Virus record (IMG/VR): IMGVR_UViG_3300017917_004576 | Location: 56,069-120,068 of that record | Source: a virus | Direction: 5' to 3' (one strand) | Length of the DNA stretch: 64,000 nucleotides | Part shown: positions 9,505 to 62,305 of the stretch, in pieces | Numbering within the stretch: the stretch's first letter is position 1 | Layout: each line of letters begins with the position of its first letter | Translations under genes and position numbers: made by a program | The notes under the pieces: generated by a model | The model's database searches: none | What the model saw: the letters and a program-made list of their open reading frames with translations, nothing else | What the model was told of the DNA's origin: nothing

Positions 9505-12500
9505 ATGAAGGTTGTAGGACAAACACTGTTTTTAGGAGCTAGTGTTATTAGTTATAGTAGCAACATAGGTTGGGGTGGAAACGCAAGTAGTCTTACAGTA
9601 GAATTAATAGAAGATATTCAACCTTTTGGTAAAGTTCCTTTTAGAAAATTTTATCAAAATCAACCAGCGGACTATGGACATCTTCATGACGAGTCGTCAG
9701 CTCCTTTACCAGGCGAACCTCAAATATCTCCATTGCCTAGTGGGCATAATGGAAATAGAAGTTTAGGTCAAGATTTTTATAATATTTCACACTATAATAG
9801 TAGTTTATCTTATTCGCCTAATCATTACTATGAATGCTCTGGTGACGATTGTTATGTGGATGAATTAGGAAATCCTTATAATCCTAACAGAACTAAACAG
9901 GATGGCACTCCCGATCCGCCAAAAGAAAGAAATATTCCTGGTAAAATATATTATGAATGGATAAATAATAGATTTATTTCCAAATATTGGATGCATGGAG
10001 ATCCAGGATTCTTTGCAACAGGCACCAAAGTACAGCCAGGCGGATTCATATCTTTAAGTGCTGGCCATAATGGACAACCTTTTAATACTCCTGGTGCCAA
10101 TGGTTTATGGACTTATGATATTATTAATACTCCGGTATATTTTAAATTTGATAATTTTGAATTTATAGGATTAGTTAAAAACTGGGAAAGAAATAACAGG
10201 CCAGGAGGAATAACATATAGTGTTACAATAGAAGGTTTTGAAAATTTATTAGATAACTGTTGGATAATATTGGATCCTTATGGAGGATCTATCTTTGGGG
10301 CGCAGGGAGCTGGTAAAGGAACTCCAGTTAATGATATTAATTTAAATAATTTTAATTATAATGGATTATTAAGTCAAGGAAATATTCCAAATATTTTTAA
10401 TGTATATGGATTTTTAGAAAGTTTTGGAATAGACTTTTTTGGTGGATCTAATCGAAATGATAATGGACTAAGAGCAACAGATGTATTATCTGCGCTAGCA
10501 GCCCTGACATCTGCTCATACCAGACTAGAAAGAGATGCTGCTTTTTCTCCATTTGGACGAATACTAACAAAATCCATGGCAGATATTAATGGTAATATTC
10601 AAGATATTAAATCATTTGGTATTATAACACCAACGATAGGAACTAATAGAAATATTATAAATAATCCTCCACCACTATATAATAGTTTTAGTCTTGACTT
10701 ATCAGATATTGGAGGACTTATATCCGATTATAGAATAGATAATTCTTCACAAAGCATATCGTCATTATTACAAGAATTAACAACAGCAAATGGAACAGAC
10801 TATACCATTAAAGTTATACCATCTATAGTCAATAATACTTTATATCAATTTGCAATTAAAGTAATGACTGTTGATAGAACCACATATAGATCACCGAATA
10901 ATATTCGCTCCATCGTTACAAATTTAGAAAATCAGAGATTTTCTATATCTAATAGTAATTTTGGACAAGATGTTAATCCAAATATAACTCATAAATTTAT
11001 TATAGGCGGACCTCAACAAAGATTATTACAGGTTAAGAACTATAGACTCCCATATGCTCAAACTAATTATGTTTATAATCCTGTTATTAAAAAATTTATT
11101 ACTTTAAATAGACCATCTAATAAAGCACGAGTTCCTGATGTTATGTCAACACGCCATCCATACATTTCAACTTTAAGTTTGGGTCCGTATATAGGAGATA
11201 GAATAAATACTAACGACACTGAAAGAGATACTAGATTCACCAGCCTAGATAGTCAGTGGAAAGATATTGAAGTTAGCGCTATAGGACGAAGTGAAGAAAT
11301 TATAAAAGGAAATTATAAAAATAGTAATATTTATTTATCTGAGTATAAAAGTTATATTGTTAGAGAAGATGATCTAAATAAGGATGTGCAGCCTAGTCAA
11401 CCGAATGTACCTTGTGTTCCTAATACTCCAACAATATTTAATAATGAAACACAATATGTTGATACTGATTGCGTGTATTATGTACCAACAACTTGTCCAG
11501 TAAGAGACTATGGAGATAACTTATCAAAACCAGATGGATGTCTTAATAATCCTACTCAACCTGGAGGTAATCAGGTAACCACAGACCCAACTATGGATGA
11601 AATTCCAGATTTTAGCGATGGAGGTTTTGTACCAGTTACTGGTTTTGATGCTCCTGCTAGTAGATATCTGAATTTACATAATGATTGGATATGTCCATAT
11701 TTTGGCAGAACTCTAGAAGAGCAATTACCACCAGCTGATGATGCTAATGAATTTAGAAGTATACGACCAGTACATCTTGATATATGGACAAATCAAATAG
11801 TTGTTAGTTTTTATATGCATGAACTACCTCAATTAAATATAGGGGAACCATTACCTTTATATGATAGTAGTATATTTGATAAAAATCGATCAACTATGGA
11901 TGTTATGGGCCCTGGAATAGATAGGGGAGAAGTTGGAGCTGGTGCGGGCGGCACAACTGCGGGATCAAGCCAGCCACCAAATCCAGCAGAAGAAGGAAAT
12001 GCTGCCGAAGGATCTTGGCAACCTTTAGGAACAGATCCAAAAAGAAGATATTTTTATAATAAACCAGGATTTACTGTTACAGAAAGTGAGATGAGAGCAG
12101 CCCAAGTAGGTTTTCCCAGCTATTTGGCATATTGCTTAGGAAAAAGTAAATATAGTAAACCTGATTTATTTATGATGTTGGTTTCAGCTTATCAACTTAA
12201 AGGTGAATTATTCGCTAATGAGGATCTTACAACATATTATAGTATTAATGATAATGATATACAAGAGCCTGGATTAAAAAGAGGTGGTGGTGTTGGAGAG
12301 AGAAATATAAATCATGAAGGTGTTAATTCAATACCTGGTGATAATATAAAAACAAATATGAATATAAACTGGAATTTATATTTAAATCATAATTTTATTA
12401 AAGATTTACAAGTAGTTTGTGAATTTATTAAAAGTTTAGCAGATAAATACTATGGTAAGCAATATATGGTTAAGCTACCAGATATGATATTGTATAGAGA

Positions 12501-19200: not shown

Positions 19201-22200
19201 GATATATTGTAGAAAATAATATTGTATATATATTACCTAAAATATGTAAATCCACAATTAATTTAGGCGTAATTCCTGATGCTCAATTTTTACCATATAC
19301 TCAGCCGTGTAATATAAATATAACACCCTGTAGACCTGATGTGCCACCAGAATGGGAATGGCTGAATCAACTACATAGAGACACTACAGATCAATATCCA
19401 AATAGTACACCTGGTATAAATGATGCTCATGGATATAGAGTATTGGGAGGAGGAGTACCCAAAAGAATAGAAAGAAGAATTAATTCTAATTCAAATCCAG
19501 TTATGGATGAATTCAATTTTACTAGTGATACTATGAATAATAGTTTTAATTATCTTTTTACTCAATCTGGGCCAGCATATCCAATTAGCCCCATTCCTAA
19601 TGAAGTTAATAACTTTTTTAGGATTCTAACAACGCCAAGAGATAATATAGATCCAGAGACAGGAGATATTTCTTCTGGTCTGCCCCAACCAAATTGTTTA
19701 AAACCAGACGGATCAAAACCAGAAGGAGGTTATTACAAAGGAGTCCCGGATCCTACTGGAGAATGGAAAGGTATAAGAAATCCAAGAGTACTAGATTTTA
19801 CTATTCAAGATCTTGAAGTAAAATTAAATTTTTTGAATTATGTTAATACAAAAGATATTGCCATATCATTGGCTTTAAGTCCGTGTACAGATGAGTATGC
19901 TAGAATATGTGATGCTAAGTGTAAGGATCCTCCTCGTTTTCCTCTAGAGTCTGCTATAAAACCTGAAGCAAATACTTTTATTGATCAAACAGTAGGAACT
20001 ACTGTGGATGGTCCTTATAGGTTATTAGGTAATGGATATACTAAATTTAATAATTGGACACCAAGGGCTGGTGATGGTAATATAAATTTTAAAAACAGTT
20101 TATCTTTTATTCCATTAGGTAATGATGATTTTGACGATTATCTTCGTATACTAACCATAATGAATACGGTCTATGATCCTATTAAAATAGAAAATGAAGC
20201 TTTTGAAGATGTACTAAAACCACAAGTGTTATATTTGTTAAATCAAGAATATATTCAAAATCATAGTATGAATTTAAGTTTAACTTTTTCAGATAATGCA
20301 AATAAATATAGTGTGCTGTATGACAAGAGCTTTGCAACAAAAGGCTCTGGTGTCGGCTCGATATCTCAAAGCAGTCTTCGATATGGCGCTGGTGATGCAG
20401 TATTCAACGAAATAGATGTAGATAATCAAACCGCTCCGCCATATAATAATCAATATATTATTGGTAATAATGATAGTATCAAACCAACAACAAGCTCGAT
20501 ATATTACTCGGATCGTCAGGCTGCTATTTATCAAAATATTATGACTACTAATAAAATAAATATAGTCAATAATAGCTTTGCAAAATATAGAGCTAAGCCA
20601 TTATTTCATAATTCTTCTTGTATAGGAGTAAATGTACCGGTTGGGAGGCCCAGATACGATAGTCAAACTTCTTTTTCTTTGAACATAACAGTATATGACG
20701 AATCTGACGATATGTTTCCGTTAAACAATAATGTCGGCTCTATGATGTTTACGAACGCCTATGACTTTGCTGGAAAAATCAATACTAGTCAATTTGACAA
20801 CGCTCTATGCAGCTGGGATCTGTTATTACATGTAAATAATATCATTAAACCAACAATGCCTAATTTAAGCTCGTGTCATACCTACGGGAATAATGAAGCA
20901 TTAGCATTAATAGATTATTCTAATAAACCTAAATATGCTGGCTATAGTTTTATAGCAAATCTTAAGAATCATAAACATCTTTTACCATTTAGTAATATTA
21001 ATGCTCCTAATATATTTTTTTATGACTATAGTCTATGTCAATCAGCTAAACTAGACCAACTAGGATCTCCGACGCCGGGCTATCTCGTTGATTTTCCAAC
21101 AAATGCAATTTTAAATATAATGACAATTATAGCAGGAATGGCTGGCATGAGCGGAGCCGGTCTGGTCGGAATAGGTGCCGGAATAGCTGGATCAGGCCCA
21201 GGTTTGGATAGTGCATATGGGGCTCTTGTCGCATATTTTAGTAGTATTAGAGCAGCTGAATATCAACAAGATATTTCGCATGACATTTTTCATCAAGACT
21301 ATAGTAGATATCCTTTTGGTAGTCCAGAAAAAATATTAATTAATTTTAGTAAAGATGGCGTATTCTGGTATAAAGCAGAGGCTTCGATATTTAAATATAT
21401 CAATACTCCTGTTTTATCTCAAAAACAATATACATATATTAAATTAAATAAAAATTCATTTCCTATATTATCTAGATTTACATTTGATTTTGTAACAGAT
21501 ATTAGGGATTTGATAGACGATAAGTATATTAAGCCGTTATCGTTGCCTTGTAGCAGCGCAGCCTCTTTGGTTGGTCCGATAACATATAATAATACGTCTT
21601 ATAATTCATATGATCTGGTAGATGTTTCTTTTTCGATAGACGATGAATCTAACGCTACGGAATCATGCCAGAATGGAATCTATTCTGTTACAGATAATCA
21701 GTGGACCTTATTGACAGGCAATCCATTATTAATAAATAGTAATCTAGATTATATTTCTGATAACAATATTCTTTTTAATAATCAAGATATTTATCGTACA
21801 AATAATATTTTTTCAAATTTTACTGTCAATGCAACAGATAACCAAATAATTATTTTAAATGGTAAAATACCCTATGAAATATTTTCTCTTAATGATAATG
21901 TAGATGTAAGTGGTAATAATCTGGAACCAGATCCTATCATAGAAGAACCAATCGGTCCGGAAACTACGCCAGGATTACCAACAGAAGACAATACTCCGCA
22001 ACCTATTTTACAACGAGCTACCGGGCCAACATATACTAGAAAAGTTATAGCAAAAGCTCTAATCTATAAAGACCACAAACCATATAGCGTATTAAAAATG
22101 GATAGGTCAATGCTTGGAGTCGATTTTATAAGTCCGCAAGATAATGTTGTTGTTGTTTTTGATCTATCGTCATCTTTTGATAATAAAGAAAGTCCATTAA

Positions 22201-54614: not shown

Positions 54615-57140
54615 TTATGGAACAAAATAAATACTTTGTCCGCTAATATAAGATTGACTAGGTGTTACTGTTGGAGTTGTTGTTGGTGTTTTTGTTGGTG
54701 TTGTGGTTACTGTACGAGTTATTGTCGGTGTTACGCTATTAGTTGGCGTTACGCTATTAGTTGGTGTTACGCTATTAGTTGGCGTTACACTATTAGTTGG
54801 CGTTACGCTATTAGTTGGCGTTACGCTATTAGTTGGCGTTACGCTATTAGTTGGCGTTACGCTATTAGTTGGTGTTACGCTATTAGTTGGTGTTACGCTA
54901 TTAGTTGGTGTTATTGTTGGGGTTTGTGTTGGCGTAATACTATTAGTTGGAGTTACCGTAGGAGTTTCTGTTGGTGTTACACTATTAGTTGGAGTTACTG
55001 TAGGAGTTTCTGTTGGTGTTACACTATTAGTTGGAGTTACTGTAGGAGTTTCAGTTATACTAGTGCTCGGCGTTATTGATGGTGTTGTTGTTGGCGTTGT
55101 GCTCGGTATTAGATTTGTTGTTTGGGTTGGGGTTACTGTTGGTGTGACAGTCGATGTTATTGTTGGTGTTATGCTATTAGTTGGTGTTACTGTTGGGGTT
55201 TCTGTTGGTGTCGGTGTGGGACTTTCTGTTGGCGTTACGCTATTCGTAGGCGTTACTGTTGGGGTTTCTGTTGGTGTTACGCTATTTGTAGGTGTTACTG
55301 TTGGGGTTATTGTTGGCGTTGCCGTAGGAGTTTCTGTTGGTGTTACGCTATTCGTAGGCGTTACTGTGGGGGTTTCTGTTGGCGTTGCCGTAGGAGTTTC
55401 CGTTGGAGTTTCCGTCGGTGTTACACTATTAGTTGGAGTTACCGTAGGAGTTTCTGTCGTAGTAACTGTTGGAGTTATACTACTAGTTGGGGTTATTGTT
55501 GGCGTTGCCGTAGGAGTTTCTGTTGGCGTTGCCGTAGGAGTTTCTGTTGGTGTTACCGTAGGAGTTTCTGTTGGTGTTACGCTATTAGTTGGTGTTACTG
55601 TTGGGGTTTCTGTTGGTGTTACCGTAGGAGTTTCTGTTGGTGTTACACTATTAGTCGGTGTTATTGTTGGTGTTATTGTTGGTGTTGGCGTCGGTGTCGG
55701 CGTAGTGGTTTTTGTTGGTGTTTGACTAACAACAGCTGCATTTTCGAATACATTAACGAGTTTACTATTTAATTGTGCTCCAGATAATATAAATCCTTTA
55801 TATTTAACTATAATTTCTTCACTATTATAAACACGATTATCATAAATTAATTGACCAAGTTTAATTCTGTCACATATACTTGTGCTTGGTGTCGGAGTAA
55901 CAGTTGGCGTAGTAGTCGCTGAACAAGTAACAGTAGGCGTAGCTGTATTAGTTGGAGTATTGGACGGGGTTCTAGTTAATGTTCTAGTTGGAGTTACTGT
56001 ATTTGTTGGAGTAATAGTACAAGTTCTTGTTGGGCTAGCTGTTAATGTTGGCGTTCTGGTACTAGTTACAGTTGGAGTAATAGTTATTGTTGGTGTAACT
56101 GTTGGAGACTGGGTCGGTGTTGCGGTGAGCGACGATGTTAATGAAGGCGTTATCGATGGAGTGATAGAACAGGTTGGTGAGATACTAGGAGTTGGTGTCG
56201 GACTAATACAAATATTTGGAGAGTTAACGGTATTATTAGCTATTCCATCAGAATTTGATGTTACTTGATCTGGAATTGTATCGCTTTGTGTAGCATATAG
56301 CCAGTAATCCCCTGTTGTGTTTTTTGTAATATCGTAATATGCTGCTTTTATCCATTCATTTCTATTACATAACCAATATAAATTTTTATTATTGGCTACT
56401 GGTATACTAATAGGATTAGTAAAATTTAAATTATATACGCCACTTTCTGTAGAATTTAAACTAAGCCCAAATGTTTGTGGTCTTGAATTATATAACCAAT
56501 TAATATATCTTGCAGAATCATACCAATTAATAAAATTAACTGGCTTATCCTCCATGTCTGTTTTAACAGAATACGATATATTTGGGCTTATTCCGTTTGA
56601 TAGTATGCCTCCTCTTGGATCATTAGTCATAGCTATATTATATGGCCAAATAATACTATTTATTTGTGTATTACTACCACTACTAGCAACATTATTTAAA
56701 AATGTGACATATTCAGAATTAGTAATTTCATATTTAGATATCTGAAAATTATAATTAACTGTTCCTAAATTATTTCTATTAATATCTCCAATATTTCCTG
56801 TGCCAGAAACAGAGACAAAACTAGAGTGTGTTATATTAAGTCCACTATTAGCGCATACTCTGAATCCAATATCTGATCTTCTTGATGTTCGACTAACAAA
56901 GACAGTGCCGCTTAGAGACGACGACGAATATGAACCACCATAAGCTAATATAGCACCATTTTCTTGATAATCTATTAATTCCCAAATATTTCCATTTTGA
57001 TCATATGTACCAAAAAAACTAGGACCTCCGTTACTGCCAACGCTAGTAACGTTGCCATCTTGATTATTCCAATCTGCTGAACCATTGTAATTTGCACTAT
57101 TACAATTTCCTAAAATAGAATAAGATGGAGGATTTGACAT
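54615..57140 (-). CDS. Circularly permuted FGE-sulfatase/CLec domain followed by long Pro/Thr stalk
   Basis: DQNGNIWE...GFR precedes KYEITN...PVNFINWYD...EWIKAAY; C-terminal roughly 500 aa mostly TPT repeats. Confidence 0.8.
54727..54906. repeat. 18-bp tandem repeat x10 (encodes TPTNSV)
   Basis: GGYGTTACRCTATTAGTT units read directly. Confidence 0.9.
54907..55720. repeat. Imperfect 12-42-bp repeats encoding [14 protein letters not shown]-type units
   Basis: Repeated GGAGTTTCTGTTGG / GTTACRCTATTAGTT blocks. Confidence 0.8.
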
Positions 57141-58027: not shown

Positions 58028-58205
58028 TTTTATCTCTTGGAAATAATCTTTTACGTTTTAATAGTGGTTTTGGAATAGGAGGAAAAGGATTTATATCATC
58101 CAATTTATCTTTTTGTTTAGGTATTATTAGTTTTACTATATTTAGTATAAAATTAAGTATTATACTAATTAGTCTATTTAATGCTAACTTATCGAAAAAA
58201 TTCAT
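58020..58205 (-). CDS. Small membrane-associated protein
   Basis: Hydrophobic segment and basic tail; AAGGA RBS and GGTGTAT motif upstream. Confidence 0.6.
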   Translation of the reverse strand: MNFFDKLALNRLISIILNFILNIVKLIIPKQKDKLDDINPFPPIPKPLLKRKRLFPRDKNE

Positions 58206-58227
58206 AAAATAATTCCTTCTTGTTTAG

Positions 58228-58276: not shown

Positions 58277-58708
58277 TTATATAGCATTGATTATTGTTGA
58301 TATTCTAGTTCCATCGACAGAACTAGTTTCTGCCCACCAATTTATATTGTTCTCTGATACAACCCAAGATTCCCCGCCATTTGCACTTACATAAATTTTT
58401 CCAGCATACTCTACTGCTATCAATTTAGTCCCATCGATACTATTAGTTATTCCATACCAGTTTCTATTTTTTTCTCGTGGAAGCCAAGTTTCTCCACCGT
58501 CTGTGCTGGTATAGATTTGTCCACCATCAACTACTGCTACAAGCTTGGAACCATCAAAACTACTAGCTATACTATGCCAATTTCTATTATTTTCTTTTGG
58601 TGTCCAAGTTAAGCCCTTATCTGTACTAACATAAATTTGTCCACCTTGTATTATTGCTACAAACTTACTTCCATCACTATTAGATGCTAACTTATCAAAA
58701 AAATTCAT
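58277..58708 (-). CDS. BNR/Asp-box repeat protein (partial beta-propeller)
   Basis: Three repeats of S.DG.K..A...G.IY.S.D.G..W...E....W. Confidence 0.8.
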   Translation of the reverse strand: MNFFDKLASNSDGSKFVAIIQGGQIYVSTDKGLTWTPKENNRNWHSIASSFDGSKLVAVVDGGQIYTSTDGGETWLPREKNRNWYGITNSIDGTKLIAVEYAGKIYVSANGGESWVVSENNINWWAETSSVDGTRISTIINAI

Positions 58709-58761
58709 AAATTATTCCTTATTATATAGCAAATACACCAAAGATTAGGTCACCAAAATAT

Positions 58762-60054
58762 TTAAGAGCAACTATAGTTACTATTTATTGGTCCGTTTCC
58801 GTTAACATCAGCGGTTACGCATGTTGGAGCAGTATTGCTCTGGGTAGCATAAGTCCAGTATCCGGCATTGGTCCCGCCACCTTTGTAATAGGCCGCTTTG
58901 TACCATTCATTTTCTGTTGGCAAATGATATTTTGCGTCATTATTACTTGGTACAGCATTTCCAGTAGTTGCTCCGTTAAGAGTATAAGCTCCGTCTTCGG
59001 TAGTGCTGCTGTTTTGACTTCCAGATGGTTTATTGTTATGTAGCCAGTTACAGTATCTGGCGCAATCAAACCAAGTTACATAATTTACTGGTTTGTTACC
59101 CATATTGGTCTTAACACTATAAGTATAACTACCGCTAGAGCCAGATCGTGTTATGCCGCCCCTATCATCGCTATTCATACTGGTATTGTATAAATTGTAA
59201 GTGTCTGTTGCTGCTACCGCATTTAAGAATACTGCATATTCACAGTTGGTAACAAGATATTGAGCTATACTATAAAAATATGAGACAGCTCCATAACCAG
59301 TAGAGTCATTGCTGTTACCAGCATCTACTACACTAACAAAGTAAGGAAGAGATAAAGGATTGAGTGTAGAGAAGCGACTTGCGATCCGAAAACCGATGAT
59401 GTTGGACTCGCTCGACGTGCCCGTCGTGTTCCTGTCGGAGGACGACAAGTCGGACGCGAAGATGCCCCAGGCGCCGCCCCGCAGCCCACGAGCCGAGTTT
59501 GTTGTATTGTCTAAATCGTTCCATTCAAATACATTTCCGCTTTGATCATATGTTCCATAAGAGCTTGGTCCACCATTGGTTCCAACAGTTGTAACATTAC
59601 CGTTTTGGAGATTCCAATCAGCACAATTATTAAAATTGGCACTATTAGCTCCTATTGGAAAAATAGATTGAGGTGTTGAACTAACGGTTTGGGTCACAGT
59701 ATTTGTTGGAGTAGGAGTATTAGTCTTGGTGACTGTTGGTGTAACTGTGTTAGATGCAGTAACTGTTGGAGATACTGTTGGCGTTGCTGTATTGGATGGA
59801 GACACTGTTGGAGTAACTGTGTTAGATGGAGACGCTGTTGGAGTAACGGTGTTTGTTGGAGACACCGATGATGTAACCGACGTTGTCGGTGTAATAGTTG
59901 GTGTTGCGGTGTGACTTGGTGTTATTGTCGGAGAAGCTGTTATGCTAGGCGTTATTGTTGGCGAAGATGTTATGGTTGGAGTTATAGTATTTGTTGGCGT
60001 TGGGGTAGCGCTAGGAATTATCGCACAACATTTTATAGTTAAAATATCGCTCAT
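58762..60054 (-). CDS. Pro/Thr stalk plus circularly permuted FGE-sulfatase/CLec domain; candidate DGR target
   Basis: N-terminal TPT repeats; DQSGNVFEW..RGLRGGAW..GFR precedes YLVTN..KPVNYVTW..LPTENEWYKAAY. Confidence 0.85.
   Translation of the reverse strand: MSDILTIKCCAIIPSATPTPTNTITPTITSSPTITPSITASPTITPSHTATPTITPTTSVTSSVSPTNTVTPTASPSNTVTPTVSPSNTATPTVSPTVTASNTVTPTVTKTNTPTPTNTVTQTVSSTPQSIFPIGANSANFNNCADWNLQNGNVTTVGTNGGPSSYGTYDQSGNVFEWNDLDNTTNSARGLRGGAWGIFASDLSSSDRNTTGTSSESNIIGFRIASRFSTLNPLSLPYFVSVVDAGNSNDSTGYGAVSYFYSIAQYLVTNCEYAVFLNAVAATDTYNLYNTSMNSDDRGGITRSGSSGSYTYSVKTNMGNKPVNYVTWFDCARYCNWLHNNKPSGSQNSSTTEDGAYTLNGATTGNAVPSNNDAKYHLPTENEWYKAAYYKGGGTNAGYWTYATQSNTAPTCVTADVNGNGPINSNYSCS
59371..59496 (-). 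other. Putative DGR variable region (GC-rich patch)
   Basis: 82/126 GC and 36/42 codons G/C-ending (hand count) in an AT-rich gene; spans RG.RGG.W...GFR. Confidence 0.65.
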
Positions 60055-60358: not shown

Positions 60359-62305
60359 TTATTTTCCTAAATAATCAAAACCATAGTCTGGTAATTTTTG
60401 TAATGGAAATCCGTCAAAGTCGCTAAAAGCGTACGCTCCGTTGCCTTTTAACATACCGGCTGCTACATCTGCTTTTATTAAAAATGACCCGTTTGGAATA
60501 GTGTCCCATTCAGGATGCCCTCCAGAGTTCCAACTATTCCCACACCAAACAGCCCTTCCGTTTCTTCTAACATACATAATATGATTAGGAATAGTAGCAC
60601 AATATATTTTACCATTATAAGGTAATAATATTGGTTTTGTTCCATTATGTTCTCTTGGTGTTAGTGAAATTTCTTTTATATTAAGTCTATATTCTTTATG
60701 TCTAGTTATATTTTTATGACCATTTTTTCCATTATCTCTACCAATACGATCAACCTCTATTATATCTGCGGCTAATCCTATTTTTAGTATTAGTTCTTGC
60801 ATATCATCTGCTAGTTTTTTTGAGGATGTATAATAATTAATTTTACCATTAGACCTAGAACCATCTCCTAGCATCATAGCATCAAAAAATATTTTTTGTT
60901 GTCTTGATGATAAATTTTTTATATAGTCTGGGATATATTTTTGATGAGCTTTACCATAAATTTTCAATTTATTATATAAGTTTTTGTCATAAGACACCAT
61001 ATTCGAAGAAAATCTAAATGGTAGCTTATTTATACAATTTTGTATTATTTCTCTTGATTCTTTTTTATTCTGACTTATACCAACTAATCCATAATATTTA
61101 ATATCTCCATTAGACATTACTTTTTTATGATTACAAGTATGTCCTTCAGAAATAAAATATCCTAAAAATTCTAACCATAAGTCCATAGATATAATATTTG
61201 AGCCTATTTTTATATTCTCGACTTCTTCCCCTTTCCATTTTGCATTTTTTTTAATATGAATATATTTAGGGCAATTTTGTGATTCTATTAATTGCCAAGA
61301 ATCAATTTTATCTAAATCAGAATTTAACTTACCAATATACATATTATGATTATCTGTAACTAATAAATCTACTCCTCTAAAATGATAATGATTTAAATAG
61401 CCATTATAATCATACTCAAATTTTTGTTGAATTTGTTGCCACTCTAAATAATGATTATTTGGATTTAATGTTGCTAATATGTCAGTGTCTGTTAAGTTTT
61501 TAAATAATTTCCATCCTGTTTTAGTAAGCACTTCAGTATCGTCTGAATAACAACCCCAACTATTTTGTACTAAAAACGCTGGTTCACTACCAGTATCATC
61601 ACAAGCAATCCAGGCCATAGCGTGAGCCCAAGAACCTTGTGGTTTAGCAAAACCCTTACTATCTCTTTTATTACTAAAGCCATACATACTACAAACACTA
61701 ATACCATAACCATTAGCTAAAGCATCTCTTGCTTCTTCTACTGTTCTAACTAGACTAACAGTTTTAACTTGATGGTCATTGGCTAAATCTATAACTTTAT
61801 CTGGTAGTCCTCGTCCTCCCCAACCAGCACCTAGCATACCTTGATATTTTGTTAAATCTATAACACCCTTATAATTTTTTCTGACTAAAACCCCACCATA
61901 CTTACTTACAAATTCTGCTGCTCTAGCACAACTCATACCCTGACCACCATGTCCTCTTGCTCCATAAATAGCTTCTGTTGCTCCTCTTGCTATCCATGCT
62001 TCTCTATTTCTCTTAACATCTATTTCTACAGCACGAGTAACATCTACCGCATTACGGGTAGAGTGGCTAACACAGTCGCTCGTCACCTGACGCTCATTAT
62101 ATGGATTCTTATCAAACTTCAAAACACTTTTGTATGGAGTAGATAGTTTACCCTTGCCTGTCCCAACTATTCTTTTTGCTCCATCACCAAAATAAGCATA
62201 TTTAGAAACTTCTAATAAATGATCAAAAATATGCTGTTCCCACAAGCACCCTTGAAATCCATCCTTATAAAGTTTGTATAATTGTTCTGGTGAGTATCTA
62301 GCCAT
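60359..62305 (-). CDS. Papain-like (C1-type) cysteine peptidase precursor containing an intein
   Basis: Q..SDCVSH (Cys), WAHAM (His), QNSWG (Asn). Confidence 0.8.
   Translation of the reverse strand: MARYSPEQLYKLYKDGFQGCLWEQHIFDHLLEVSKYAYFGDGAKRIVGTGKGKLSTPYKSVLKFDKNPYNERQVTSDCVSHSTRNAVDVTRAVEIDVKRNREAWIARGATEAIYGARGHGGQGMSCARAAEFVSKYGGVLVRKNYKGVIDLTKYQGMLGAGWGGRGLPDKVIDLANDHQVKTVSLVRTVEEARDALANGYGISVCSMYGFSNKRDSKGFAKPQGSWAHAMAWIACDDTGSEPAFLVQNSWGCYSDDTEVLTKTGWKLFKNLTDTDILATLNPNNHYLEWQQIQQKFEYDYNGYLNHYHFRGVDLLVTDNHNMYIGKLNSDLDKIDSWQLIESQNCPKYIHIKKNAKWKGEEVENIKIGSNIISMDLWLEFLGYFISEGHTCNHKKVMSNGDIKYYGLVGISQNKKESREIIQNCINKLPFRFSSNMVSYDKNLYNKLKIYGKAHQKYIPDYIKNLSSRQQKIFFDAMMLGDGSRSNGKINYYTSSKKLADDMQELILKIGLAADIIEVDRIGRDNGKNGHKNITRHKEYRLNIKEISLTPREHNGTKPILLPYNGKIYCATIPNHIMYVRRNGRAVWCGNSWNSGGHPEWDTIPNGSFLIKADVAAGMLKGNGAYAFSDFDGFPLQKLPDYGFDYLGK
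60536..61552 (-). mobile_element. Intein with LAGLIDADG endonuclease (339 aa)
   Basis: CYSDDTEVLT..GW, VTDNH, YCATIPNH..YVRRNG..WCGN/S; FLGYFISEG and MMLGDG. Confidence 0.92.

Follow-up and report, generated by a model that had tools for sequence, protein, structure and literature searches.

A GC-rich variable region of bacterial retroelement type in a circularly permuted phage protein, and its possible rewriting in trans

In a tailed freshwater phage with AT-rich DNA (GC 0.33) we found a GC-rich patch inside a 430-aa gene which, judged from its sequence, is a genuine variable region (VR) of a diversity-generating retroelement (DGR). The template repeat (TR), reverse transcriptase (RT) and Avd that belong to such a VR were found in contigs of GC-rich bacteria. 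In the explanation that we consider best, and to which we give about even chances, a true DGR VR in a permuted phage head derives from the TR of PVC bacteria, the phage itself carries no mutator, and cDNA is written into its genome in trans.

The GC-rich patch and the gene that holds it

The window is the whole stretch of DNA that was analysed, 64,000 nucleotides corresponding to positions 56,069 to 120,068 of the IMG/VR record IMGVR_UViG_3300017917_004576. A search of the window for tRNA genes found none. The following features are referred to in the text:

58762..60054, (-) strand: 430-aa gene (ORF call) with a short N-terminus, a Pro/Thr-rich stalk and a circularly permuted FGE-sulfatase/C-type-lectin-like head in which the VR lies
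59665..60015, (-) strand: Pro/Thr-rich stalk, approx. aa 14-130 (translation)
59371..59664, (-) strand: FGE/CLec half-domain that is canonically C-terminal and here comes first, aa 131-228 (blastp, Pfam)
59378..59496, (-) strand: VR, the homologue of nucleotides 6-124 of the bacterial TR, which is 124 nt long (alignment to the TR of locus L192)
59395..59472, (-) strand: mutable core, delimited by the outermost template-adenine codons, patch codons 9-34 (codon alignment of 18 orthologs, template codons)
58780..59340, (-) strand: FGE/CLec half-domain that is canonically N-terminal and here comes last, aa 239-425, with AT-rich codon usage (Pfam, blastp)
54615..57140, (-) strand: 841-aa paralogue with the same permuted head but without the GC-rich patch (PF03781, E=1.5e-8), used as context and negative control

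Between 59371 and 59496, 82 of 126 nucleotides were G or C and 36 of 42 codons ended in G or C, while the remainder of the gene had a GC of 0.40 and a GC3 of 0.26. Our recount agreed with the switch in composition described in the first-pass annotation, and the peptide written there for the patch was an exact match to the translation of this interval. When 100-nt windows were laid over the whole 120,068-bp phage record (mean GC 0.327, sd 0.071), the patch region gave the highest value, 0.69, with a runner-up of 0.60. Windows with a GC of 0.59 at 11876-12045 and 21115-21250 were considered as VRs and rejected, being Gly/Ala-rich protein segments. The head of the 841-aa paralogue (56200-57140) contained no window with a GC of at least 0.52, and in the counterpart of this paralogue in the near-identical phage L061 (L061 6004-6897) the GC3 of the patch-equivalent was 0.22. 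Contigs assembled from two runs of a separate study gave the identical sequence, with 0 differences over 58300-59910, and the patch is therefore no assembly artefact.

A codon alignment was made from 18 orthologous phage genes at 16 loci. The GC3 per column was raised to 0.7-0.9 over the interval that opens just upstream of RGG and closes just short of GFR, and the flanks were AT-rich with a protein identity of only 60-74%. Hypervariable columns were NNC codons, with C in the third position in 13-17 of the 18 orthologs, and the residues they encode are located in the ligand-binding loop of the C-type-lectin fold, between RGG.W and GFR. The invariant codons of the patch were free of adenine and conserved even synonymously. 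Of the 72 distinct patches taken from AT-rich loci, 15 showed a GC3 excess of 0.25 or more, and these 15 all belonged to the closest relatives. The first-pass annotation had proposed a DGR-type VR between RGG.W and GFR, which the NNC pattern in the 18 orthologs bore out. The NNC codons that it had expected to vary were likewise supported by the alignment, except for the TCC after GCG, where the template reads TTC and has no adenine codon.

The invariant 3' end, GGTTTTCGTCTCGCAAG, was common to the TR, the bacterial VRs and most phage VRs. A GC-rich hairpin of the BPP-1 type after the VR (stem of at least 5 bp, loop of 3-8 nt) was conserved neither in the phage genes nor in the cognate bacterial genes, and its absence from the phage, counted against the preferred explanation, carries little weight because the cognate bacterial VRs are also without one.

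The profile and alignment data indicate that the phage head is a circularly permuted FGE-sulfatase/C-type-lectin-like domain. The 430-aa protein matched PF03781 with 60.1 bits (cut-off 23.3, E=3.5e-16) in two stretches of swapped order, profile positions 159-254 preceding positions 36-133, the latter corresponding to aa 260-401. The phage protein departs from the canonical arrangement of the halves, in which the variable loop is C-terminal. By blastp, residues 137-237 aligned to residues 239-335 of a bacterial target with 60% identity, and residues 239-425 to bacterial residues 53-236 with 61% identity. The internal position of the phage VR in the chain follows from this permutation. An AF2 model of aa 131-430 was obtained with a pLDDT of 94.7 and a pTM of 0.94. 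The ten best Foldseek rows were FGE-fold proteins (FGE/pFGE, CarF, TvpA, PorK, PvdO, CalU17), all with an E of at least 0.039, and 34 of the 34 matches listed by VIA-align were FGE-type-domain proteins with Z of at most 6.4, i.e. below 8. The best structural matches were CarF (Z 6.4 over 155 aligned residues) and TvpA (PDB 2Y3C, Z 5.5 over 144), and the matches spanned the second half of the model alone, residues approx. 99-297. The circular permutation would explain why both searches gave weak matches covering a half-domain only.

The bacterial template and the phage without a mutator

The first-pass annotation had predicted a GC-rich template of the form RGGNWNNNA..NRN..NENNN.GFR, which was found almost to the letter beside bAvd and a DGR RT in bacterial contigs. 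This AAC-rich TR, which reads SSRGLRGGNWNNNAFNLSSSNRNTNDPSNENNNIGFRLASPC, was present in 12 GC-rich loci (GC 0.63-0.68), one of them on a contig from a Planctomycetota MAG. It lay directly after bAvd (E 6e-21 to 3e-22) and RVT_1 (E=3.1e-22), and the gene order in both L192 and L194 was target, avd, RT, TR. Template adenines were the only sites at which the TR of L192 differed from the VR next to it. Other contigs of the bacterial DGR family had a GC of 0.59-0.72. Judging by these contigs, the family, composed of a PEP-CTERM-tailed target, avd, RT and TR, lives in GC-rich PVC bacteria, mainly in MAGs labelled Planctomycetota. L175 and L201, two of the 82 metagenome loci, were rejected as chance matches. 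The Chthoniobacterales genome L142 contains a VR of the same type and a DGR on the same 532-kb contig; it was rejected as TR donor because the TR of that DGR differs.

Compared with the TR of L192, the VR of the window had mismatches at 15 of 31 adenine sites and at 9 of 93 other sites (Fisher p=1.2e-5), the bias towards adenines that a DGR origin had led the first-pass annotation to expect for the best donor. The AT-rich contig L202 differed from the TR at 16/31 adenine sites vs 0/70 others, L036 at 18/31 vs 6/93 and L074 at 15/31 vs 4/93. Bona fide bacterial VRs had up to 11 non-A mismatches of 93, the median being 2. As the VR of the window carries 9/93 non-A mismatches to the nearest TR, among them template positions 8, 48, 79 and 83, either the search missed its exact donor or the patch has changed with age, and these mismatches were counted against the preferred explanation.

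An origin unrelated to DGRs, for instance a chimeric assembly or selection acting locally on mRNA structure or in favour of GC-rich codons, would account for the composition itself and for nothing further. It is contradicted by the NNC pattern, by the adenine-specific relation to the TR and by the independent assemblies with 0 differences, and we consider it extremely improbable.

A mutator was searched for in the phage. RVT_1 and bAvd each gave 0 matches in the 120-kb record. No second copy of the patch was returned from the record by blastn with word size 7, in which only the self match appeared at E<1, and an ungapped scan for a template repeat, with genomic A treated as a wildcard, gave no site above 95/126, the best ones lying in A-rich DNA. 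The earlier observation that the window holds neither an RT nor a second patch copy was confirmed across the whole 120,068-bp record, and the description of the patch as an orphan extended to three relatives rated 100% complete (230, 178 and 154 kb), in which no RT or TR was found either. RVT_1 was absent from all seven related phage records searched, three of them rated 100% complete, and the bacterial TR, used as query against four related records (three rated 100% complete), returned from each its own VR only. In the viral collection a 16-base pattern fitting both TR and VR gave 61 matches. Three of these were true sites, all of them VRs, and the other 58 were discarded as chance matches in GC-rich or unrelated contigs. 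L078, the sole viral contig with an exact 21-mer of the patch, is GC-rich and unrelated and was rejected as a chance match. The DGR criterion of a TR and an RT in the genome of the VR itself does not describe the 82%-complete record or the relatives searched.

The TR and the RT could nevertheless be phage-borne, either in the unassembled 18% of the record, which is rated 82% complete, or carried by a co-packaged or satellite element. Assemblies frequently break at DGR loci, and several contigs end inside VRs. This proposal has to face the 230-, 178- and 154-kb relatives rated 100% complete, in each of which the only TR-like site was the phage's own VR and RVT_1 was absent, as well as the 12/12 TR-bearing loci found with a GC of 0.63-0.68, none of them AT-rich. 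We regard it as highly improbable.

The VR turns over between close phage relatives. L117 and L202 were 90.5% identical over 895 nt of flank, and their VRs agreed at 67/70 non-A sites and at only 10/31 A sites. In the window, the consensus VR was identical in three runs from two studies, as read from contigs, which are blind to minor variants, and thus there was no sign of fast turnover in the sampled population, an observation counted against the preferred explanation. Identical VRs also recurred in several samples elsewhere (L002-4, L005/6, L013/14/29).

Such recurring VRs, that of the window included, could be read as relics of an ancestral phage DGR, captured from PVC bacteria, that has lost RT and TR and left the patches as decaying fossils. 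The graded state of the patches is compatible with decay, since non-A mismatches ranged from 0/70 up to 30/93 with GC3 falling in step from 0.9 to 0.4. Fossils are difficult to reconcile with L202, which had 0/70 non-A differences from a TR of 0.66-GC bacteria despite its AT-rich flanks, with the close relatives L117 and L202, which differed at 21/31 A sites and 3/70 others, and with the synonymous conservation of the invariant codons across orthologs with saturated flanks; moreover, a TR or RT was found in none of the viral contigs searched. A relic is in our opinion improbable.

Routes by which the variable region may be rewritten

In the preferred explanation the phage genome would be inside a cell that carries the bacterial DGR. 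The RT-Avd complex of the cell would copy its own TR RNA with errors at adenines, and the cDNA would replace the phage VR, the invariant 5' and 3' VR ends providing the homology. After the writing, the patch would drift slowly toward phage-like AT-rich codons. We infer writing of cDNA into the phage genome in trans, with the DGR-bearing bacteria as its host, and the diversification would be an ongoing activity. Put for the whole lineage, AT-rich freshwater phages of 120-230 kb would possess a retrohoming-competent VR and no mutator, and would be rewritten repeatedly by the avd-RT-TR of infected Planctomycetota-type cells, a generalisation whose chances we place slightly below even. The patch of the window lay wholly within the template limits, with AT-type codons on both sides, and among the contigs of one run in which the phage occurs there is one that combines a bacterial-type VR with a PEP-CTERM flank. 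Of the first-pass proposal that the phage is diversified by a host DGR, the orphan VR and the matching bacterial template stood, but the writing in trans was not singled out, since recombination fits as well.

Alternatively, the phage VR may be replaced at intervals by homologous recombination with a finished bacterial VR, so that no cDNA enters the phage while the cellular DGR still supplies the variation. Crossovers would occur at the invariant VR ends and in the homologous upstream half-domain, possibly with help from the UvsX-like recombinase that the phage encodes. In L012, L040, L074 and L011, GC-rich bacterial-like sequence continued 10-20 codons upstream of the 5' limit of the TR, an observation counted against the preferred explanation. 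A cDNA of the TR cannot supply sequence upstream of the TR 5' end; for these orthologs at least, recombination with target genes of bacteria is suggested. In L074, 4/5 upstream 15-nt windows matched the best bacterial gene at 12-14/15. The phage head shared 50-61% protein identity with the bacterial targets, and a tree built from the VR-free half-domain placed the bacterial targets inside the unresolved core of the phage family; this tree had a midpoint root only and unsettled bootstrap, and no direction of transfer was drawn from it. The locus is also a mosaic spot, as the near-identical phage L061 has the same N-terminus and stalk but a different head, and in a strain from run X5, read over its covered parts, the interval 59094-59504 is replaced.

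The same proposal meets difficulties downstream of the VR, where the phage gene (permuted domain) and the bacterial genes (PEP-CTERM tail) are unrelated, and the 3' crossover would therefore be confined to approx. 11-21 nt of shared sequence. AT-type codons reached right to the template limit in most orthologs. Four phage VRs, the only ones comparable without gaps, were compared with 42 sampled bacterial VRs, and the best agreement was 16-19/31 A sites with a background of 11.3 (sd 2.8) under thin sampling; for these four, no sampled bacterial VR stood above background at the A sites. We hold replacement by recombination to be rather unlikely.

The phage GC of 0.33 vs 0.63-0.68 in the TR contigs was counted against the preferred explanation, writing in trans, as phages and their hosts seldom lie so far apart in GC. 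A search with the phage terminase in 401 sampled Planctomycetota genomes gave nothing at E<=1e-10, which is uninformative for a lytic phage. By terminase, the nearest isolated phages were Microcystis and Bacillus phages with an identity of only 23-25%, and the isolated phages therefore give no clue to the host. The 'provirus' relative G011 had ends without GC-rich host flank.

Should phage genes be written by cellular DGRs, such a mutator would act beyond the genome that carries it, and a virus could leave the hypermutation of its binding protein to the host. This would be a natural coupling of a host DGR to a virus, with the GC-rich patch as a built-in host label across a 30-point GC gap. A template match would then link uncultured phages to hosts by sequence alone, including pairs that composition methods never make, and surveys that demand an RT beside the VR overlook such targets by design. 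Even if recombination is the route, a cellular DGR would feed diversity into the receptor-binding module of a phage.

Comparison with known systems

Treponema denticola TvpA (PDB 2Y3C) and the formylglycine-generating-enzyme fold belong to the same PF03781 family as the phage head, and match the second half of its model only. Further counterparts are the freshwater Planctomycetota-type PEP-CTERM FGE/CLec targets (L147, L153, L172, L194 and others), which share 50-61% identity, the same VR limits and the invariant codons. These bacterial targets have a signal peptide, the canonical order of the half-domains, a C-terminal VR, GC-rich sequence throughout and adjoining avd, RT and TR, whereas the phage protein has a Pro/Thr stalk, the permuted order and AT-rich flanks.

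The DGR of phage BPP-1 (mtd VR, avd, TR, brt) resembles the present case in its adenine-specific rewriting, in a phage binding loop of C-type-lectin fold and in the invariant VR ends. The relevant sections of Guo et al. 2011 (PMC3240598) describe a complete cassette in BPP-1, with a C-terminal VR that is followed by a GC-rich hairpin. Unlike BPP-1, the phage described here has the VR only, internal and without such a hairpin, and the matching TR, RT and Avd reside on contigs of bacteria.

In the remote targets of cellular DGRs, for which the sections of Wu et al. 2018 on this subject describe Treponema (PMC5758913), one TR and RT likewise serve distant VRs with A-to-N-only differences, but there the VRs are in the same genome as the TR, and here the TR is in contigs of other organisms. 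A remote target is defined in those sections by an A-to-N-only TR match in the same genome, and the phage VR has no match of this kind. The same sections do not expect remote cellular targets of phage-associated DGRs, and do not raise the reverse case. The method of Roux et al. 2021 is, in the part of PMC8144416 that concerns it, described as blind to remote targets, and in the passages of PMC4372165 that use the term, 'orphan' carries another sense. In the literature, taken apart from supplementary tables, we found same-genome remote targets and laboratory trans-complementation, and no printed description of a phage-borne case.

The trans-complementation is a parallel to the step that we propose. 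In the laboratory, avd-TR-brt on a plasmid acts in trans on phage BPP-1, as reported in the pertinent sections of Guo et al. 2011 (PMC3240598), and the corresponding sections of Wu et al. describe avd, TR and brt as functional in trans from a plasmid (PMC5758913). As in the present proposal, TR and RT are on one replicon and the VR is on a phage genome; the plasmid system, in contrast, is engineered from cognate parts of one element, and here a natural pairing across a GC gap of approx. 30 points is proposed. By analogy, this laboratory precedent, as far as those sections describe it, shows that the trans step would be mechanistically possible (PMC3240598, PMC5758913).

The GC-rich patch and its gene

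A recount of the patch at window positions 59371-59496 agreed exactly with the composition figures and the encoded peptide of the first-pass annotation: 82 of 126 bases are G or C and 36 of 42 codons end in G or C. In the remainder of the 430-codon gene the GC is 0.40 and the GC3 0.26. The whole virus record (G000), whose final 64 kb form the window, comprises 120,068 bp with a GC of 0.327 and a completeness rating of 82%, and among all its 100-nt windows (sd 0.071) the region at the patch had the highest GC, 0.69, followed by 0.60 for the second-best. Contigs from two runs of another study covered 58300-59910 with 0 differences. Since two runs of a different study gave the same sequence, we concluded that the patch is not an assembly artefact, and the observation of a GC-rich patch is confirmed. 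The gene and the first part of its product are placed as follows.

58762-60054, minus strand: ORF of the 430-codon gene
aa 1-130 of the 430-aa protein: short N-terminus and Pro/Thr-rich stalk

G000 is a tailed phage with a terminase, a portal and a UvsX-like recombinase, and its terminase shares only 23-25% identity with that of any isolate. Bases 1-2000 of the record, outside the window, reach a GC of about 0.5 where the rest has 0.33, and small cassettes containing repeated GCATTTTGC-type boxes lie there. A 648-aa protein (window 60359-62305, minus strand) carries a LAGLIDADG_3 domain (aa 472-537) inserted mid-protein between parts with weak PHROG matches; the insert resembles an intein or a homing endonuclease insertion.

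In the Pfam search PF03781 (FGE-sulfatase, E=3.5e-16) matched the 430-aa protein in two stretches whose order was swapped. The head (aa 131-430) was modelled with AF2 from 41 aligned relatives as a single confident domain (pLDDT 94.7, pTM 0.94). The top structural matches were FGE-fold proteins, the DGR target TvpA among them; they were weak (Foldseek E at least 0.039; VIA-align Z at most 6.4) and spanned just half of the model, as expected for a circular permutant. Three permuted heads are encoded in G000, in the 430-aa gene, its 841-aa neighbour and a 1186-aa protein, and the GC-rich patch was absent from the heads of the latter two.

Window 58762-60054 was set against 3401-4861 of L061, a phage locus with flanks 96-99.7% identical to those of the window phage. 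The two share the N-terminus and Pro/Thr stalk, which in L061 carry a BNR/sortilin-like propeller head (486 aa) in place of the lectin head. The stalk seems to stay constant while its head is exchanged, and because L061 joins the same N-terminus and stalk to another head, the presumed function of the 430-aa protein is that of a virion adhesin on a stalk, with heads that can be interchanged.

A 143-aa BNR gene stands alone next to the lectin gene (58277-58708). Two neighbouring small genes share a 38-nt start (MNFFDKLA...; 58174-58211 and 58677-58714) at 89% identity, another conserved N-terminus on different bodies. A strain contig of sequencing run X5 showed 98.7% identity over 58300-59094, after which 59094-59504 was replaced by approx. 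400 unlike letters; this 410-nt block corresponds to the variable region and the start of the following half-domain. A second contig in this comparison had 59275-59516 replaced. These replacements look like a block exchange around the variable region.

Variable-region signature and an AAC-rich bacterial template

The search for related loci yielded 76 viral loci with 103 tblastn matches spanning the patch, which gave 79 distinct patch sequences. Of 72 distinct patches found in AT-rich loci, 15 exceeded the GC3 of their own flanks by 0.25 or more, and all 15 belong to the closest relatives (at least 60% protein identity). In a codon alignment of 18 patch-bearing genes from 16 loci, with AT-rich flanks of 60-74% protein identity, the per-column GC3 climbed to 0.7-0.9 from shortly before RGG until shortly before GFR and then dropped. 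Hypervariable columns were NNC codons throughout, with C at the third position in 13-17 of 18 genes. Invariant columns held A-free codons (CGG GGC GGC, TGG, GCG, TTG TCG TCC TCC, CCG TCG, GAG) with conserved synonymous sites. A conserved template rich in AAC, copied again and again, would produce just such a pattern. The ortholog comparison thus bears out the DGR-type variable region with NNC variable codons that had been proposed earlier, and the patch is, judged from the aligned genes, a DGR variable region (VR).

A 24-base-specified pattern was then searched in species-representative genomes and metagenome assemblies. It matched eight stretches in the former. Five of these belonged to MAGs whose label was Planctomycetota, Planctomycetia or Planctomycetaceae, a sixth to a 532-kb contig of Chthoniobacterales, and the last two to short contigs from MAGs of actinobacteria. 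In the metagenomes 82 loci matched, including two chance matches and one AT-rich contig (L202); the remaining ones, among those listed, were GC-rich (GC 0.59-0.72 outside the segment). At least 12 loci, including L144 of a Planctomycetota MAG, contained an AAC-rich copy reading SSRGLRGGNWNNNAFNLSSSNRNTNDPSNENNNIGFRLASPC, with a bAvd and an RVT_1 gene directly upstream of it. The AAC-rich template predicted by the first-pass annotation has therefore a near match, located beside bAvd and RVT_1 in GC-rich bacterial contigs.

In the bacterial loci L192 and L194 the order was target gene with VR, avd, RT and template repeat (TR), and the 124-nt TR-VR homology differed at template adenines only. The bacterial targets are approx. 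350 aa long, with a signal peptide, an FGE domain in canonical order, a C-terminal VR and a PEP-CTERM tail. With its two halves swapped, the phage head is 50-61% identical to them. TR/VR-family DNA was detected in 10 of 401 sampled Planctomycetota genomes (E at most 1e-10). On the 92.9-kb Planctomycetota contig of L147 a VR gene lies beside an avd whose product is 97.6% identical to the query Avd, and a search with the RT protein found no RT in the 8-kb locus nor in the whole genome (G006), perhaps because the cassette is degenerate or the assembly has a gap.

In two further loci, L172 (minus strand, at about 6173) and L177, a copy directly after the RT had template-type flanks on both sides and VR-like substitutions at adenine positions; either a template was overwritten by mutagenised cDNA or TR flanks were joined to a VR in assembly. 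The 532-kb Chthoniobacterales contig (L142 and L232) bears a Planctomycetota-type VR with a PEP-CTERM-like tail. The DGR of that genome has an RT 53% identical and a different AAC-rich template, and because of this difference the L142 VR may be a remote or foreign one, or one that another element serves.

Neither mutator nor template was found on the phage side. RVT_1 had 0 matches in G000 (82% complete) and in seven related records (5 + 2), three of them rated 100% complete (230, 178 and 154 kb); the same search was positive in 4 of 14 control genomes. bAvd was not found in G000, and a second copy of the patch was found there neither by blastn at word size 7 nor by an adenine-tolerant scan, so that the absence of an RT gene and a second copy, noted earlier for the window, extends to the whole record. 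No template was present within 6 kb of any ortholog and no bacterial RT or Avd in any phage locus. A search of four related records with the bacterial TR recovered in each case the record's own VR only, apart from one 17-nt chance match (E=0.18). The pattern obligatory for a TR or VR of the patch type occurred in 61 stretches of the viral collection; three were real, all VRs, and none was a TR.

Phage variable regions compared with the template

Mismatches were counted separately for the 31 adenine sites of the template and for other sites, and compared with the Fisher test.

Mismatches of VRs to the bacterial template
VR; adenine sites; other sites; p
Window; 15/31; 9/93; 1.2e-5
L202 (AT-rich contig); 16/31; 0/70; 1.9e-10
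L074 (phage locus); 15/31; 4/93; 8.0e-8
L036 (phage locus); 18/31; 6/93; 6.3e-9

Of the nine non-A differences of the window, three lie at the first bases of homology and two near the 3' end; two further ones recur in bacterial VRs (4/42 and 13/42). True bacterial VRs had a median of 2 and a maximum of 11 non-A differences. None of the TRs recovered was the exact donor of the window. At A sites, phage VRs had base shares of A.50, C.10, G.19 and T.22, similar to the A.45, C.09, G.26 and T.20 of bacterial VRs. The series runs on to decayed patches with 27-30/93 non-A mismatches and GC3 drops in parallel; from this graded series, it seems that patches are written first and afterwards approach the phage composition by drift. 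The phage locus L117 and L202, 90.5% identical over 895 nt, agreed in their VRs at 67/70 non-A sites and 10/31 A sites, a VR turnover visible in sequence between close relatives. Very probably the patch comes from a DGR, as a VR whose template is external and of bacterial type.

Writing in trans or pick-up

The phage VR would have been rewritten by trans retrohoming, in which cDNA from a cellular TR is written into it. We consider this the likeliest route, with confidence about evenly balanced, ahead of recombinational pick-up. The window patch lies wholly inside the template limits, most orthologs keep AT-type codons up to the template 5' limit, and phage and bacterial genes are unrelated 3' of the VR, where a DNA crossover is limited to approx. 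11-21 nt; all three favour writing. Acquisition by recombination with a finished bacterial VR gene is possible but rather unlikely. In its favour, L012, L040, L074 and L011 have GC-rich bacterial-like sequence 10-20 codons past the template 5' end, which cDNA cannot supply; the locus is mosaic among strains, and the phage encodes the UvsX-like recombinase. A midpoint-rooted tree of 41 phage and 10 bacterial half-domain sequences, built with the VR left out and with an unsettled bootstrap, placed the bacterial targets as one clade within the unresolved core of the phage family, a topology that shows gene flow without giving its direction.

Trans writing and pick-up may both operate. By either route a cellular DGR is the source of the variation, and a cell carrying that DGR must have contained phage DNA. 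Sequencing run X3 contained the phage and a contig with a bacterial-type VR running into a PEP-CTERM flank, a weak positive for co-residence. The large GC gap between phage (0.33) and TR-bearing contigs (0.63-0.68) calls for caution about such bacteria as the presumed host. The consensus VR was the same in the contigs of three runs of two studies, a further reason for caution, here over present activity. Of the proposal that a host DGR acts in trans, the external, bacterial-type template stood, and the trans step is moderately favoured over pick-up.

In the sections available of PMC3240598 and PMC5758913, plasmid-borne trans action of a DGR is established in the laboratory and homing does not need upstream sequence, which also speaks for writing. 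The literature searched yielded same-genome remote targets and laboratory trans-complementation as well. According to the accessible text of PMC5758913, DGRs borne by phages are not expected to have remote targets that are cellular. The literature searched, partly available as excerpts, described no natural case in which a cellular DGR serves a VR carried by a phage, and supplements may list the RT cluster. BPP-1 has a hairpin downstream of its VR, whereas no hairpin of this type follows the phage VR here or the cognate bacterial VRs. The machinery is a standard DGR; the unusual part is the target, which is placed on another organism's genome.
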